From Gammaproteobacteria bacterium 28-57-27 (lineage in GTDB: Bacteria; Pseudomonadota; Gammaproteobacteria; Halothiobacillales; Halothiobacillaceae): DNA of 64,000 nt. The DNA lies in assembly GCA_002281735.1 (NCBI GenBank), contig NCGK01000019.1:10777-74776 (forward strand), in the 5' to 3' direction. The position numbers and the translations under genes were made by a program. The notes beneath the pieces are model-generated. The model made no database searches. It was not told the origin of the DNA and saw only the letters and a program-made list of their open reading frames with translations. Below, piece by piece: positions 19,320-35,018 of this stretch; the first letter of the stretch is position 1, and each line of letters begins with the position of its first letter.

Positions 19320-20195
19320 TCAAGCCGCAAGCTTCAACGCTTCAGCCACAGGCCGAACCACTGGCGGATGTAGCGGGTCGTAATCGTCCGGCAGCTCGCC
19401 CTGGGCGATCAGCTTGGAGCGGCTGACCAGGAAGTCTACCAAGTGGTTGCGCACGGCGTAGAAATGCGGGTCGTGGTGAATCTCCTGACGTACACGCGGC
19501 TTGGGCAGCGGGTTTTCCACGATCTCGGCGATCTTGGCATACGGGCCGTTGGACATCAGCACGATCTTGTCGGCCAGCAGGATGGCCTCGTCCACATCGT
19601 GGGTAATCATGAACACCGTCTGGTGCGTGGCGGCGCAGATCTTCACCAGTTCGTCCTGAATCACGCCGCGCGTCAGCGCATCCAGTGCGCCGAAGGGCTC
19701 GTCCATCAGCAGCATCTTCGGTTCGATGGCGAAGGCGCGGGCGATACCGACGCGTTGCTTCATGCCGCCGGAAAGCTGGTGCGGCTTCTTGTCCGCCGCG
19801 TGACCGAGGCCGACCAGCTCAATGTACTTCATGCAGTGCTCGCGCACCTGCGCCTTGCTCCAGTCGTGCCAGCGCGAGCTGACGGCGAAGGCGACGTTCT
19901 CGATCACCGTCAGCCAGGGCATCAGCGCGTGGCTCTGGAACACCACGCCGCGATCCAGGCTCGGGCCTTTCACTTCGCGTCCATCCATGAAGACATTGCC
20001 ATCGGTGGCTTCATCCAGTCCGGCCAGCACATTAAGGATGGTGGACTTGCCGCAGCCGGAGTGGCCGATAATGCAGACGAATTCACCTTTTTCGAAACCG
20101 AAATGGATGTTTTCAAACACGGTGACATCTTGTGCGCCACCCGGCGAGGGAAAGACCTTTTTCAGTCCTTCAACCTTGAGGAAGGGCTGGTTCAT
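19320..20195 (-). CDS. Cyanate/nitrate-type ABC transporter ATP-binding protein (CynD/NrtD-like)
   Basis: [27 protein letters not shown]; start reset to ATG 20195. Confidence 0.93.
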
Positions 20196-20200
20196 ACGTA

Positions 20201-21043
20201 TCACTCCTGATAACTGACTAATTTGGCCAGGGCGCCGAACACCATGTCGAGCGCCATACCGACCGCGCCGATCATGAAGATGGCGAAGATCACATTGGAC
20301 AGATTGAGGTTGTTCCACTCGTTCCACACGAAGTAGCCGATACCGGTGCCGCCGACCAGCATTTCGGCGGCGACGATCACCAGCCAGGCAATGCCCATTG
20401 AAATGCGCATCCCGGTCAGAATGGTCGGCGCGGCAGCAGGCAGTACCACTTGCATGGCGGTGCGGAAGGCGTTGACCTCCAGCGTGCGGGCGACATTCAA
20501 CCAATCCTTCTTGACCGAGGCCACGCCGTGCGCGGTGTTAATCATCATCGGCCAGATCGAGCAGATGAAAATCACGAAGATCGAAGACAGCGAGGCATCC
20601 TTGATGGTGTAGAGCGCAAGCGGCATCCAGGCCAAGGGCGAGATCGGCTTCATGATCTGGATGTACGGATTCAGCGCCTTGAACATCAGGGGCGACATGC
20701 CGATCACAAAACCCAGCGGAATCGCCACCAGCGCCGCCAGCAAGAAGCCGGACAGCACGCGCGCCAGCGACCAGGCCAGCTGGATGCCAATGCCCTTGTC
20801 GTTCGGCCCGTTGTCATAAAACGGGTGAGCAAGCTGACTGAGGATGGTCTGACCGACCACACCCGGGGTAGGCATACCGGAGGCCTGCACCGCAGCGCCG
20901 CCCATCATCGCGGCGTATTCCGGGTCGGCATACACTGTGCCACCGCCGCTCGGCGGCAGGGTAGCGAGCTGCCACGCGCCGAGGAAAACGATCAGGATCA
21001 GCGCGGAGACTATGCTCGCGCGCAGGGACAAAGAGGCTTTCAT
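20201..21043 (-). CDS. Cyanate/nitrate-type ABC permease (CynB/NrtB-like)
   Basis: PFYDNGPNDKGIG; PISPLAWMPL; WLVIVAAEML. Confidence 0.93.
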   Translation of the reverse strand: MKASLSLRASIVSALILIVFLGAWQLATLPPSGGGTVYADPEYAAMMGGAAVQASGMPTPGVVGQTILSQLAHPFYDNGPNDKGIGIQLAWSLARVLSGFLLAALVAIPLGFVIGMSPLMFKALNPYIQIMKPISPLAWMPLALYTIKDASLSSIFVIFICSIWPMMINTAHGVASVKKDWLNVARTLEVNAFRTAMQVVLPAAAPTILTGMRISMGIAWLVIVAAEMLVGGTGIGYFVWNEWNNLNLSNVIFAIFMIGAVGMALDMVFGALAKLVSYQE

Positions 21044-21044
21044 C

Positions 21045-22421
21045 TCACACCGCCTTGCGGATGGCGAAGGAGTCGACATATTCCTGCGGCTTGGCCGGGT
21101 CGAACACCTTGCCCATGATGATGTGCTTCTTGAAGTTCTCCGCCGGAGCCTCGATACCCATGTCCTTCAGACGTGCACGCGCTTCGGTGGCAAGGAAAAT
21201 CTGCTCGGCAATCTGCTTGTAGTCGATGTCCTGCTTGATGTAGCCCCAACGCTTGAGCTGGGTAAGAATCCACACACCCATCGACTGCCAGGGGAAGGGA
21301 TCGAAGTCCACGCGCCCCGGCACAGTCAGCACATTGCCCAGACCGTCGGCGAATTTACCGGTCATCACCTGCTGCAATACCGGAATCGGCTGGTTCAGAT
21401 AATTGGCTGGCGCAATGGCCTCGATAATTGCCGCGCGGTTTTCCGCCTTATGCGCATACACCGTGGCGTTGGCGATGGCGCGGAATAGCGCGGAGTAGGT
21501 ATTCGGCGCTTCCTTGATGAACTTGTCGGTGGCGGCAAAGGTGCAACAGGGGTGGCCGTCCCACATATCCTTGGACAGAATCTGGATAAAGCCCACGCCC
21601 TCGAACACCGCACGCTGGTTGAACGGCTCTGGCCCAAGGAAGCCGTCGATATTACCCGCGCGCAGGTTGGCGACCATTTCCGGCGGCGCAATCACGCTGA
21701 TCTGCACATCCGTGTCCGGATTGATGCCATGCTCGGCCAAGTAGTAGCGCAGCAGCAGGTTGTGCATCGAGTAGTCGAACGGAATGCCGAACTTCATGCC
21801 CTTCCAGTTTTTTGGGTCGCGATTGTCCTTGTGCTTGAGCGCCATGGTGATCGCTTGGCCATTGATGTTCTGGATGGTCGCGACCGAAGTCGGGTTGGGT
21901 TGAGCACCCAGCCCCATGCTGGCGGCAATCGGCATGGGAGAGAGCATATGCGAAGCATCGTATTCAGCGCTCAGCACCTTGTCGCGGATCAACGCCCAAC
22001 CGGCGGTCTTGATGACCTCGACATTCAGCCCTTCACGCTCGTAAAAGCCCATCGGCTTGGCCATGATGATCGGCGTGGCGCAGGTGATGGGAATAAAGCC
22101 GACCTTGAGATTGGTCTTCTCCAACGGCCCACCTTCAGCGGCCAGTGCCTGAACTGCGCCCATGGGGAACAGCGCGGATAGCGCAGCCATCGCCGTGCCC
22201 GCGCCGACCGCCTTGAGGAAGGCGCGACGGGTTTCATCATGCGGGAACAGCGCGCGCACCACGGCGGATTCGATCACCCGGTTCAGCGCCGCTTCTTCTT
22301 CCTGCGGCTCGTTCAGGCGCGCCTGCTCGGCATCGTGTTCAGACTGGCTGTTGTGCTTGCCGCAAGAGCAGCCGCCCTTGAGGCGGATGCTGAAATCGAA
22401 CGGGTTTTTGAAGGCGGACAT
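21045..22421 (-). CDS. CmpA/NrtA/CynA-family ABC substrate-binding protein
   Basis: VGFIPITCATP; NINGQAI; YSMHN; WDGHPCC; FDPFPW. Confidence 0.93.
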   Translation of the reverse strand: MSAFKNPFDFSIRLKGGCSCGKHNSQSEHDAEQARLNEPQEEEAALNRVIESAVVRALFPHDETRRAFLKAVGAGTAMAALSALFPMGAVQALAAEGGPLEKTNLKVGFIPITCATPIIMAKPMGFYEREGLNVEVIKTAGWALIRDKVLSAEYDASHMLSPMPIAASMGLGAQPNPTSVATIQNINGQAITMALKHKDNRDPKNWKGMKFGIPFDYSMHNLLLRYYLAEHGINPDTDVQISVIAPPEMVANLRAGNIDGFLGPEPFNQRAVFEGVGFIQILSKDMWDGHPCCTFAATDKFIKEAPNTYSALFRAIANATVYAHKAENRAAIIEAIAPANYLNQPIPVLQQVMTGKFADGLGNVLTVPGRVDFDPFPWQSMGVWILTQLKRWGYIKQDIDYKQIAEQIFLATEARARLKDMGIEAPAENFKKHIIMGKVFDPAKPQEYVDSFAIRKAV

Positions 22422-22463
22422 GGCGTTTCTCCCTGCGTGAAAATTGACTTACAAACTGGACAA

Positions 22464-22479
22464 AGCAGTCTTCGTGCCA
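22464..22479 (-). promoter_or_regulatory. sigma54 -24/-12 promoter of the ABC operon
   Basis: Minus strand TGGCACGAAGACTGCT matches TGGCACG-N4-TTGCW. Confidence 0.85.
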
Positions 22480-22562
22480 AAAAACCATGGGAGAGCCGCG
22501 AAGTGCCACCATGCACGCTATCGGCGCGGAGACCAGGGGCAAAAAGGAGTGAATACGACCGA

Positions 22563-22579
22563 AGCACCAAAACAGTGCA
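22563..22579. promoter_or_regulatory. Candidate NtrC-binding site
   Basis: AGCACCA-AAA-CAGTGCA versus consensus TGCACCA-N3-TGGTGCA, about 85 bp upstream of the -24 element. Confidence 0.5.
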
Positions 22580-34228: not shown

Positions 34229-34273
34229 GGGGATTTTCCTCGGTTATGCGTTGATGGTTCGCAATCGAGGTAA

Positions 34274-34309
34274 TGCACAGCCCGTGCCAAGCGGCTCAAC
34301 CCATTGATA
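34274..34309 (-). promoter_or_regulatory. sigma54 promoter plus IHF site of the four-gene redox operon
   Basis: Minus strand TGGCACGGGCTGTGCA (34274-34289); TATCAA-TGGG-TTG (34297-34309). Confidence 0.82.
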
Positions 34310-34355
34310 TAAAAGATATTTTACTAAACAAGCCGCACACCACTGCACCAAAGCA

Positions 34356-34410
34356 TGACATTGTCGATCTATTTGTCCTTAAATGTCCTTTTTACGGTCG
34401 AACAATGTCC
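34356..34410. promoter_or_regulatory. Candidate activator UAS between divergent promoters
   Basis: GACATTGTC 34357-34365; AAATGTCC 34381-34388; GTCGAACAATGTCC 34397-34410. Confidence 0.65.
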
Positions 34411-34486
34411 GACCGGAGGGTGTTGAGCGCGCCGCGCTGCGCGCCAAATATCCCGAAAGCCGCATCCAGACGCGCTTCGTCAATGT

Positions 34487-34502
34487 TGGCAAGCTTTTTG
34501 AT
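34487..34502 (+). promoter_or_regulatory. Variant sigma54 promoter for cynS
   Basis: TGGCAAGCTTTTTGAT: -24 GG and spacing fit, -12 is GA instead of GC. Confidence 0.45.
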
Positions 34503-34574
34503 AGTACTTTTAACAGGCGAACAATACGCCCAGCCCACAAAGCAACCTCATTCAACCTAACCGGAGAAATTGCC

Positions 34575-35018
34575 ATGATGAGCAAAGAAGCCCTGACCGC
34601 CCTGATCCTTGAAAAGAAAGAAACCCTCGGCCTGAGCTGGGAGGCCATCGCCAGCGGCATCGGCCTCTCGCCGGTGTTCACCACCTCCGCCTGTCTGGGC
34701 ATGAACAGCCTCAAGCCGGAGTACGCGCAAAAGCTGGTCACCGTGCTGGAATTACCCGCCGAGGCCAAGGCCGCGACCGAAGCCTGCCCGAGCAAGAGCT
34801 GGGAAAAAGCCGTACCGACCGACCCGCTGATTTATCGCCTGTACGAAATCGTCGGCGTGTACGGCCCGACCATGAAGGCACTGATTCATGAAAAATTCGG
34901 CGACGGCATCATGAGCGCCATCGACTTCTCCATGCACATCGACAAGGAAGAAAACCCACTGGGCGACCGCGTGGTAGTGACCATGAACGGCAAATTCCTG
35001 CCTTACAAATCCTGGTAA
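34575..35018 (+). CDS. cynS: Cyanate hydratase (cyanase)
   Basis: PTDPLIYRLYE; EKFGDGIMSAIDF; GKFLPY; RBS GGAGA before ATG 34575. Confidence 0.97.
   Translation: MMSKEALTALILEKKETLGLSWEAIASGIGLSPVFTTSACLGMNSLKPEYAQKLVTVLELPAEAKAATEACPSKSWEKAVPTDPLIYRLYEIVGVYGPTMKALIHEKFGDGIMSAIDFSMHIDKEENPLGDRVVVTMNGKFLPYKSW

Follow-up and report, generated by a model that had tools for sequence, protein, structure and literature searches.

A 64,000-nucleotide stretch of the Gammaproteobacteria bacterium 28-57-27 assembly (GenBank GCA_002281735.1, contig NCGK01000019.1, positions 10,777 to 74,776; hereafter 'the window') carries, at positions 19,320 to 35,018, a locus that we would class as a variant of the known cyn cyanate system, with a conserved and undescribed four-gene module in addition. 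We read the locus as a nitrogen-controlled pseudohalide assimilation unit with two layers, the known cyn genes and an undescribed operon that would make cyanate from thiocyanate, and put the probability of this reading at roughly 0.45. Among genetic candidates for a system that turns thiocyanate (or cyanide) into cyanate in the cytoplasm, this operon is so far the strongest.

Genes were called from a listing of open reading frames (ORFs) together with Pfam and NCBIfam scans, covering some 55 ORFs across the window. The genes, gene order and regulatory motifs listed in an earlier note on this DNA were all found where it had placed them. The four genes of the operon follow one another with gaps of 58, 18 and 50 nt and encode an OsmC-like protein, a protein with the fold of acyl-CoA dehydrogenases (ACADs), a rubredoxin–rubredoxin reductase fusion and a rhodanese:

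33665–34228, minus strand: OsmC-like protein with a single cysteine (PF02566)
32470–33606, minus strand: ACAD-fold protein, the proposed flavoprotein and terminal enzyme (weak ACAD matches in Pfam)
31030–32451, minus strand: fusion of rubredoxin and NAD(P)H rubredoxin reductase (Rubredoxin, Pyr_redox_2 and Rbx_binding)
30122–30979, minus strand: two-domain rhodanese with the active-site loop YCFKGARAS, holding Cys237 (two Pfam stretches)

When genomes were scanned by alignment, one for each GTDB species, at least 592 species-level loci with the ACAD-fold family were found, mainly in Proteobacteria. Ninety retrieved loci (given L numbers below) were examined by tblastn with the window proteins, and the counts that follow use the 62 with at least 6 kb on both sides; longest-ORF calling gave antisense artefacts in high-GC loci, and only Pfam-confirmed families were used. 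The OsmC-like gene adjoined the ACAD-fold gene in 62/62 loci, cynS lay within 8 kb of the module in 48/62, drawn from Alpha-, Beta- and Gammaproteobacteria, and an NrtA-family binding protein was present in 57/62. Rhodanese genes were frequent without being universal (38/62) and the rubredoxin-reductase fusion was found in 33/62. Co-occurrence with cynS, which the earlier note had proposed as a check, was thus borne out, and the pattern that it had named as contrary, a module occurring mostly without cynS, was not what the loci showed.

The gammaproteobacterial carriers included Halothiobacillus, Guyparkeria, Thiomicrospira, Hydrogenovibrio, Thiomicrorhabdus, Thioalkalivibrio, Sedimenticolaceae/Ca. 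Thiodiazotropha, purple sulfur bacteria, Vreelandella and Marinobacter; betaproteobacterial carriers were Burkholderiales, Lautropia and Oxalicibacterium, and alphaproteobacterial ones Roseibium, Thioclava, Xanthobacter, Hyphomicrobium, Methylocystis and Acetobacter. Hosts were strongly biased toward sulfur oxidisers, and the window host is itself a Halothiobacillus-like sulfur oxidiser, the closest relatives of its ACAD-fold protein (77–98% identity) being those of Halothiobacillus, Halothiobacillaceae metagenome-assembled genomes (MAGs) and Thiofaba. Stray matches to the module occurred in MAGs labelled Cyanobacteria and Myxococcales. A 1.1 kb contig from a sulfidic-cave MAG binned as 'Treponema denticola' (L001), 93% identical to the Halothiobacillus ACAD-fold gene, is likely to have been mis-binned.

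Module genes stood in recognizable strings on several replicons, including a conjugative plasmid, and the module is mobile as well as widespread. A RefSeq plasmid of Acetobacter ascendens has the order OsmC, ACAD, rubredoxin(reductase), CmpA/NrtA, NtrB, ATPase, cynS, porin and sigma54 regulator; the conjugative plasmid pMAD49a of Marinobacter shengliensis has ATP-binding cassette (ABC) genes, sigma54 regulator, OsmC, ACAD, FAD oxidoreductase and cynS; and a Pseudosulfitobacter plasmid has ABC genes, OsmC, ACAD, sulfurtransferase and DsbA-like gene, with transposition genes on the flanks. Many Alphaproteobacteria carry the string ABC2–OsmC–ACAD–Rhd–cynS–reductase. The names given to module proteins by PGAP/RefSeq are generic, the ACAD-fold protein being an 'acyl-CoA dehydrogenase family' member.

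Two types of binding protein were distinguished among these loci. Type 1 is 55–90% identical to the window protein and usually belongs to a string of binding protein, permease, ATPase and cynS, as in Burkholderiales, Xanthobacter and Acetobacter. Type 2 is 25–29% identical to the window protein, is still matched by NMT1_2 and has solved relatives of the NrtA/CmpA kind; in Alphaproteobacteria and many Gammaproteobacteria its importer immediately precedes the OsmC-like gene. Altogether, an NrtA-family ABC importer stood immediately upstream of the OsmC-like gene in 37/62 loci, and some loci (L043, L069, L039 and L041) contained both types. The presence of two importer types in one locus suggests that a further small anion is taken up and feeds into cyanate; the simplest reading of the sequences would be that type 1 imports cyanate and type 2 imports this second anion, which the OsmC/ACAD module would process.

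A distant variant (38% identity) was found on plasmid pNP7-5 of Moraxella osloensis (L094, 8202–15242) and in Neisseria gonorrhoeae (L093, 8416–10074). Here a protein of the carboxymuconolactone decarboxylase (CMD) family takes the place of the OsmC-like protein, and cynS is absent from both loci; downstream of the CMD gene in Moraxella come the ACAD-fold gene, an FAD oxidoreductase gene and the genes of an NrtA-type ABC importer. Since both hosts are human-associated, the variant may serve another purpose, perhaps oxidant defence. The PLSDB entry NZ_CP119142.1, a 2.17 Mb N. gonorrhoeae 'plasmid', is evidently a chromosome.

The ACAD-fold protein forms a distinct and sharply conserved family, with 133 clusters of the representative library matched at E < 1e-30 and a mean column identity of 64% among 15 diverse members. 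Its AlphaFold2 model (pLDDT 88) has the three-domain ACAD fold, and the top Foldseek matches were SCAD, IVD and the butyryl-CoA enzyme BCAD, at a TM score of about 0.8 and about 20% identity. The position of the catalytic glutamate of MCAD and SCAD ('YEG', 'YEGT') reads VTP, with Thr362-Pro363 at least 95% conserved in 93 sequences, and the helix-G glutamate position of IVD and LCAD is occupied by Met or Ile. Because both catalytic-glutamate positions are replaced, the protein is predicted to be unable to act as an acyl-CoA dehydrogenase despite its fold. Cys88 was considered as a special catalytic residue and set aside; it is invariant, but human SCAD has a cysteine at the aligned position, so it is not diagnostic.

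In the OsmC-like protein, Cys93 is kept in 90/90 sequences and other cysteines vary. The position of the second OsmC/Ohr cysteine is held by Ser170-Pro171, with Ser170 at least 95% conserved in the alignment of 90, so the pair of conserved cysteines that characterizes OsmC/Ohr thiol peroxidases was not found among these sequences. The closest structure, the uncharacterised 2OPL, has an SPV motif in common with it. A conventional two-cysteine peroxidase is therefore unlikely on this alignment, and the protein looks like a one-cysteine carrier or adduct-forming protein.

The reductase fusion has P. aeruginosa rubredoxin reductase (RubB; 2V3A, E 9e-68) as its best solved relative, and possesses the CxxC...CxxC site, FAD/NAD Rossmann motifs and C-terminal rubredoxin-binding domain that define rubredoxins and their reductases. 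Its four rubredoxin cysteines are invariant. These features predict an electron-transfer reductase; a role as persulfide or disulfide reductase was rejected, as no redox cysteine is conserved in the reductase part. Alphaproteobacterial clusters do not have the fusion and encode a putidaredoxin-reductase-type enzyme (Pyr_redox_2 plus Reductase_C) in its place (L050, L054, L063, L072 and L083), followed in L063 by a 2Fe-2S ferredoxin gene. Multicomponent oxygenases typically show such a non-orthologous swap of the FeS–reductase chain, which suggests that the terminal protein receives electrons.

Rhodanese Cys237, in the loop CFKGARAS, was invariant in 48/48 orthologues, placing the catalytic cysteine in the C-terminal domain as expected of tandem rhodaneses. 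The orthologues are unusually well conserved, at 54–93% identity from Alpha- to Gammaproteobacteria (60–68% between the two classes), and the solved relatives are 1UAR, RhdA 1E0C, YnjE and 1RHD. Proteins of sulfur and thiol chemistry recur throughout the module: besides the invariant-cysteine rhodanese and the one-cysteine OsmC-like protein, one or two DUF302 genes lie between the ACAD-fold and rubredoxin reductase genes (L025, L098, L102 and other gammaproteobacterial loci), and a GST (L048) or a DsbA-like 2-hydroxychromene-2-carboxylate isomerase/kappa-GST (several Alphaproteobacteria and Pseudosulfitobacter) follows the reductase or rhodanese.

The other layer of the locus comprises an importer, an activator and a cyanase:

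19320–20195, minus strand: ABC transporter ATP-binding subunit, CynD/NrtD-like (312 bits for TIGR01184, the NrtC/D model, whose cutoff is 292)
20201–21079, minus strand: ABC permease, CynB/NrtB-like (TIGR01183, 227 bits against a cutoff of 209; BPD_transp_1)
21045–22421, minus strand: periplasmic binding protein of the NrtA/CmpA family, 'type 1' (NMT1_2, E 5e-81)
22985–24568, plus strand: activator with GAF, Sigma54_activat and HTH_8 domains, CynF-like with NifA-type architecture, divergent from the ABC operon (Pfam)
34575–35018, plus strand: cyanase CynS, 147 aa (NF002773, 200 bits against a cutoff of 150; TIGR00673, 165 bits against a cutoff of 113)

The ATPase ORF spans 19320–20504 on the minus strand, and its real start, MNQPF at 20195, was fixed from the translation; a terminator-like hairpin lies downstream of the gene at 19206–19232. 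The binding protein has NrtA, CmpA and the C-terminal domain of NrtC as its best solved relatives (E 1e-36 to 1e-53) and, given its orthologues in cynS strings, is the probable cyanate binder CynA. The activator scored 455 bits against the NifA model, under the cutoff of 529. The earlier note's 'divergent cyanase' is divergent in its orientation and canonical in its sequence, scoring above both NCBIfam cutoffs; the listed ORF (34383–35018) is indeed a cyanase, over-extended at the 5′ end, the real start being the ATG at 34575, which is preceded by a GGAG ribosome-binding site. CynS contains YRLYE and GIMSAIDF stretches, which we take to be cyanase active-site motifs.

Judged by their sequences, activator, importer and cyanase would together form a known kind of system, the counterpart of cynF–cynABD–cynS of Pseudomonas pseudoalcaligenes, and account for about half of the locus. 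In Pseudomonas, regulation of the CynF type is known to respond to cyanate and ammonium (PMC6627978).

Control elements of one kind precede the ABC operon and the four-gene operon:

22465–22479, minus strand: sigma54 −24/−12 promoter for the ABC operon, TGGCACGAAGACTGC, lying upstream of the binding-protein gene, 44 nt from its start codon
34275–34289, minus strand: sigma54 −24/−12 promoter for the four-gene operon, TGGCACGGGCTGTGC, lying upstream of the OsmC-like gene, 46 nt from its start
22623–22664: upstream activator site (UAS) between the ABC operon and the activator gene, the inverted pair GGACATTG ... TCGAACAATGTCC (sequence match)
34357–34410: UAS between the four-gene operon and cynS, GACATTG ... 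TCGAACAATGTCC (sequence match)

The exact 13-mer TCGAACAATGTCC has only two copies in the 64 kb, one in each divergent intergenic region (22652 and 34398), in agreement with the shared upstream motif of the earlier note, and both copies have an upstream inverted partner, GGACATTG or GACATTG. The near-palindrome GGACA(T/A)TGTCC is conserved in Halothiobacillus, Thiofaba and Guyparkeria loci. Eleven loci of these genera have a sigma54 promoter at equal distance from the OsmC-like gene, and in 10 of the 11 one or two copies of GGACATTGTC(C/G) are present. These elements within the UAS, also written GGACATTGTCC, are putative activator-binding sites, and the predicted sigma54/UAS control common to the two operons is, on these matches, real and conserved. 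A GAF/sigma54 activator was found in 32/62 loci, all of them in Beta- or Gammaproteobacteria; control of the module is of the nitrogen type, by sigma54, in those two classes and by TetR in Alphaproteobacteria.

We hypothesize that the two layers work as follows. In the first, the CynF-like activator would bind the GGACA(T/A)TGTCC sites and fire the sigma54 promoters, the CynABD-like importer would bring in cyanate, and cyanase would convert it with bicarbonate to ammonia and CO2. The second layer would turn thiocyanate into cyanate by means of a multicomponent system in the cytoplasm that depends on NAD(P)H and O2. NAD(P)H would supply electrons, which would travel by way of the reductase FAD and the rubredoxin iron to the ACAD-fold protein and reduce its flavin. 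With O2, this reduced flavin would oxygenate thiocyanate at its sulfur end, the thiocyanate being unbound or attached as an adduct to Cys93 of the OsmC-like protein. Cleavage of the C–S bond would then free cyanate for CynS, as a nitrogen source, and Cys93, rhodanese Cys237 or both would trap the zero-valent sulfur as a persulfide before it went on to sulfur oxidation or assimilation. The net reaction would be SCN− + O2 + NAD(P)H + H+ → OCN− + [S0]-carrier + H2O + NAD(P)+. Here we infer the substrate, the use of O2, the direction of electrons into the ACAD-fold protein and the order of sulfur transfer, and likewise the flavin-based removal of sulfur with its hand-off to cysteine carriers. Peroxide oxidation of thiocyanate gives cyanate.

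The thiocyanate reading fits the sulfur-oxidiser bias of the hosts and the mine-water source of the DNA. The exact window sequence was found in mine-drainage and mine-tailings metagenome runs (DNA), with a single metatranscriptome matching just 13% of words, and thiocyanate is produced industrially in mining processes (PMC5744179).

Several observations weigh against this reading. Thiocyanate suggests itself as the substrate only through the products it would give, cyanate and sulfane sulfur. cynS was not within 8 kb of the module in 14/62 loci, rhodanese was missing from 24/62, and the window carries the type 1 importer only. The structures nearest to the ACAD-fold protein are those of ordinary ACADs, not of DszC-type oxygenases, and no ACAD-fold flavoprotein is known to us that takes its electrons from a rubredoxin or ferredoxin. 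Of the sigma54 promoters in the earlier note, those before the OsmC-like and binding-protein genes are good, but the candidate for the window cynS, TGGCAAGCTTTTTGA (at about 34487), is degenerate, having no −12 GC, and is overlapped by a sigma70-like match, so that it is not canonical; a good sigma54 promoter does face cynS in Thiomicrospira and Hydrogenovibrio loci. All Guyparkeria carry cynS, which in five Guyparkeria loci lies beside the module, yet growth on thiocyanate for energy is reported for SCN-R1 alone, a strain with TcDH, in work that gives no account of thiocyanate as a nitrogen source; cyanase activity was undetected in SCN-R1 extracts.

The evidence does not tell thiocyanate from cyanide or another small S/C/N anion, and each has been weighed. 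Cyanide could be turned into cyanate by a monooxygenase in which the same NAD(P)H–FeS–flavoprotein chain acts through a flavin hydroperoxide or an S-cyanylated or sulfenylated Cys93, with rhodanese as a parallel cyanide-to-thiocyanate sink or in sulfur recycling. The coupling to cynS and the oxygenase-type electron chain fit this equally well; the mine-drainage and tailings metagenomes and the dispensability of rhodanese in the 24 loci noted above also speak for it. A cyanide monooxygenase feeding cyanase has long been postulated, and we know of no gene assigned to it. We nevertheless consider it unlikely: HCN is largely uncharged at neutral pH and should need no ABC importer, yet a dedicated NrtA-family one lies directly upstream of the OsmC-like gene in the 37 loci counted above, the GST, DsbA-like and rhodanese genes point to sulfur as a product, and the bias toward sulfur oxidisers would be left unexplained. 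That the anion yielding cyanate is instead monothiocarbamate (formed from cyanate and sulfide, or from COS and ammonia), selenocyanate or a dithiocarbamate seems to us very unlikely. NrtA/CmpA-type binding proteins do recognize small oxyanions such as nitrate and bicarbonate, the hosts inhabit sulfidic habitats, and NCBIfam has seleno-variants for the OsmC-like and rhodanese families, but nothing positive favours any one of these compounds, and thiocyanate is, as far as we know, commoner and more stable than all three.

Two further explanations would take the module out of assimilation altogether. It might serve thiol redox defence, with the OsmC-like protein as a peroxidase or (pseudo)hypohalite scavenger (of HOSCN or organic hydroperoxides) recycled through NAD(P)H, rubredoxin reductase and the ACAD-fold flavoprotein, and be merely co-regulated with the cyn genes or repair thiols damaged by cyanate. 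The Moraxella/Neisseria variant, with its CMD protein and no cynS nearby, speaks for this; the CMD family includes AhpD alkylhydroperoxidases, and Moraxella and Neisseria live on mucosal surfaces, where HOSCN is made. OsmC/Ohr proteins are moreover cysteine peroxidases (PMC5157978). Against it stand the conserved serine in place of the second cysteine, found in the window protein and in 2OPL alike, the conservation of the rhodanese within the module, and the control of importer/cynS operons by sigma54 or TetR, a nutritional or catabolic signature rather than one of the OxyR/OhrR type, and we hold it to be quite unlikely. An ordinary acyl-CoA or fatty-acid redox operon lying beside cyn genes by chance, as the ACAD fold and the 'acyl-CoA dehydrogenase family' name from Pfam and PGAP would have it, is scarcely credible: the catalytic glutamate is missing at both positions, the cluster has no CoA-ligase, hydratase or thiolase genes, and linkage to cynS and an NrtA importer over three proteobacterial classes cannot be chance.

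Of the described cyanate systems, cynFABDS of Pseudomonas pseudoalcaligenes CECT5344 (PMC6627978) and cynABDS of Synechococcus are alike to the locus in having a divergent sigma54 Fis-type activator and an NrtA-family importer, with, as in cynFABDS, a sigma54 promoter before the binding-protein gene and a canonical cyanase; the activator is likened to CynF by its domains and arrangement rather than by direct sequence comparison. Unlike in cynFABDS, cynS here lies outside the ABC operon and is separately transcribed from it, 12 kb away (34575–35018, plus strand, against 19320–22421, minus strand), and is divergent from an extra four-gene operon that has its own sigma54 promoter and the same UAS. 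No such operon is listed in the neighbourhood of the Pseudomonas cluster as published (PMC6627978). A full-text literature search gave no account of the module or its proteins in connection with cyanase, cyanate or thiocyanate; the one paper with OsmC, ACAD and rhodanese together concerned DTDB catabolism in Rhodococcus, where the genes are unlinked. The earlier note's proposal of an undescribed system consequently holds for the four-gene module, and not for the half of the locus that matches cynF–cynABD–cynS.

Two thiocyanate enzymes are known, ScnABC and TcDH. TcDH, a copper enzyme of Thioalkalivibrio, Thiohalobacter and Guyparkeria SCN-R1, resembles the proposed chemistry in converting SCN− to cyanate and zero-valent sulfur, in being O2-dependent in vivo and in occurring in sulfur oxidisers; it is the sole known enzyme for the 'cyanate pathway', which has been postulated, as hydrolytic or cytoplasmic, since 1954 (PMC6504805, PMC5744179). 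TcDH is, however, periplasmic, Tat-exported, of about 56 kDa and used for energy, whereas the module is proposed to be cytoplasmic, based on flavin, FeS and cysteine, NAD(P)H-consuming, under nitrogen-type control and unrelated in sequence. ScnABC, a cobalt nitrile-hydratase homologue, is encoded beside a NitT/TauT-type ABC importer and sulfur-transfer genes, with a cyanase gene in Thiobacillus thioparus (PMC5328954), but its products are COS and NH3, not cyanate, and the window is without a nitrile-hydratase-family gene. The absences given in the earlier note were upheld: nitrile-hydratase (ScnABC), nitrilase, nif and molybdopterin nitrate-reductase families had no match among the approximately 55 scanned ORFs, and, judged by size, none of the unassigned ORFs in the interval from 19 to 37 kb could encode the 56-kDa TcDH. 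ORFs of at least 150 aa in that interval each belong to another family, save unassigned ones of 151–168 aa and longer ones antisense to assigned genes. We give about an even chance that the module is a third, unrelated thiocyanate system, a cytoplasmic NAD(P)H/O2-dependent 'thiocyanate monooxygenase/desulfurase' (or, as a variant, a cyanide monooxygenase) and the missing enzyme of the cyanate pathway.

For the terminal component, DszC and Rv3094c (PDB 7F72) are alike in having an ACAD fold without acyl-CoA dehydrogenation, and are known for oxygenating sulfur by way of a flavin hydroperoxide and then cleaving the C–S bond. These Group D enzymes use free reduced flavin from a flavin reductase, in contrast to the rubredoxin or ferredoxin chain that partners the module protein, and the profile of the latter is nearer to true short-chain ACADs, which rank first (E 1e-26), than to the S-oxygenase Rv3094c (E 2e-7). 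The same chain of NAD(P)H, FAD reductase and small FeS protein is found in AlkB/RubA/RubB and in P450cam with putidaredoxin, the rubredoxin and 2Fe-2S types being swapped between lineages, but in the module the terminal part would be the ACAD-fold and one-cysteine OsmC-like proteins rather than a di-iron or haem oxygenase.

Gold mining and coking release thiocyanate and cyanide as major pollutants, and both compounds occur naturally in sulfidic sediments, plants and mucosal secretions. If the thiocyanate reading is correct, the module would be a new thiocyanate (or cyanide) conversion system and a marker gene for thiocyanate capacity in metagenomes, would explain the frequency of cyanase genes in sulfur oxidisers, and would form a new node joining the nitrogen and sulfur cycles, with a new reaction type for the ACAD fold and for one-cysteine OsmC-like proteins. 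Should the substrate be another, the closeness of the linkage still opens a family of several thousand uncharacterised sequences to direct tests.

Between the activator gene and the operon lies a 4.7 kb insertion (24585–29262, with genes at 24678–29262; Pfam, PADLOC) containing a ParE toxin, an antitoxin-like ORF, a P63C protein, an AAA ATPase and a TPR-like ORF:

24678–24986, minus strand: ParE toxin (Pfam/PADLOC scan)
25388–26356: P63C-domain protein (Pfam/PADLOC scan)
26835–28538: AAA ATPase (weak IetA/TRIP13 matches in PADLOC)

The insertion genes are missing from related loci, and the stretch from 24.6 to 29.3 kb is taken to lie outside the system because in L006, L014 and L015 the activator directly abuts the operon, following CopD or RubRed. 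The AAA+ ATPase that the earlier note had counted as a component is accordingly a real gene and was rejected as part of the system, sitting beside the ParE toxin and P63C protein in DNA that relatives do not have. The insertion may be a small defence or mobile islet. Long perfect or near-perfect, REP-like palindromes occupy intergenic positions 22715–22775 and 24585–24645 (GTAGGTCAGGCTTTAGCCTGAC...; TAGGGTGCGCCATGCGCACC...GGTGCGCATGGCGCACCCTA), one of them between the UAS and the activator gene.

Membrane proteins are encoded next to both ends of the operon–cynS region:

29413–29865, minus strand: small CopD-family membrane protein (PF05425)
35765–36742, plus strand: SLAC1/TehA-type anion channel (PF03595, E 5e-55), with a strong terminator at 36767–36796

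The CopD-family gene is kept after the operon in Halothiobacillaceae, with orthologues in L003–L006, L009–L011, L015 and L016. SLAC1/TehA orthologues adjoin cynS in L003, L005, L009, L012 and L043, and an FNT channel (formate/nitrite/hydrosulfide type) occupies their place in other lineages (L078 and L098); FNT or SLAC1/TehA anion channels, or an alginate-export-type porin, also lie near the module in some loci. Either channel could move cyanate, thiocyanate or HS−, and the SLAC1/TehA channel is a possible member of the system.

The remainder of the window consists of housekeeping genes (trp, rpe, pst/pho, ppk/ppx, ftsZ and mur). Just beyond the locus are an ECF-type sigma factor (17452–18006) and a SAM methyltransferase (18094–18888), for which no connection to the system was found. 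An M20-family peptidase/amidohydrolase (16203–17360) lies 2 kb from the ABC operon, and one comes straight after cynS in Roseibium polysiphoniae (L053, 10924–12054); its nearness to cyn genes may be a coincidence, or it may be a hydrolase for N-carbamoylated amino acids formed by cyanate.

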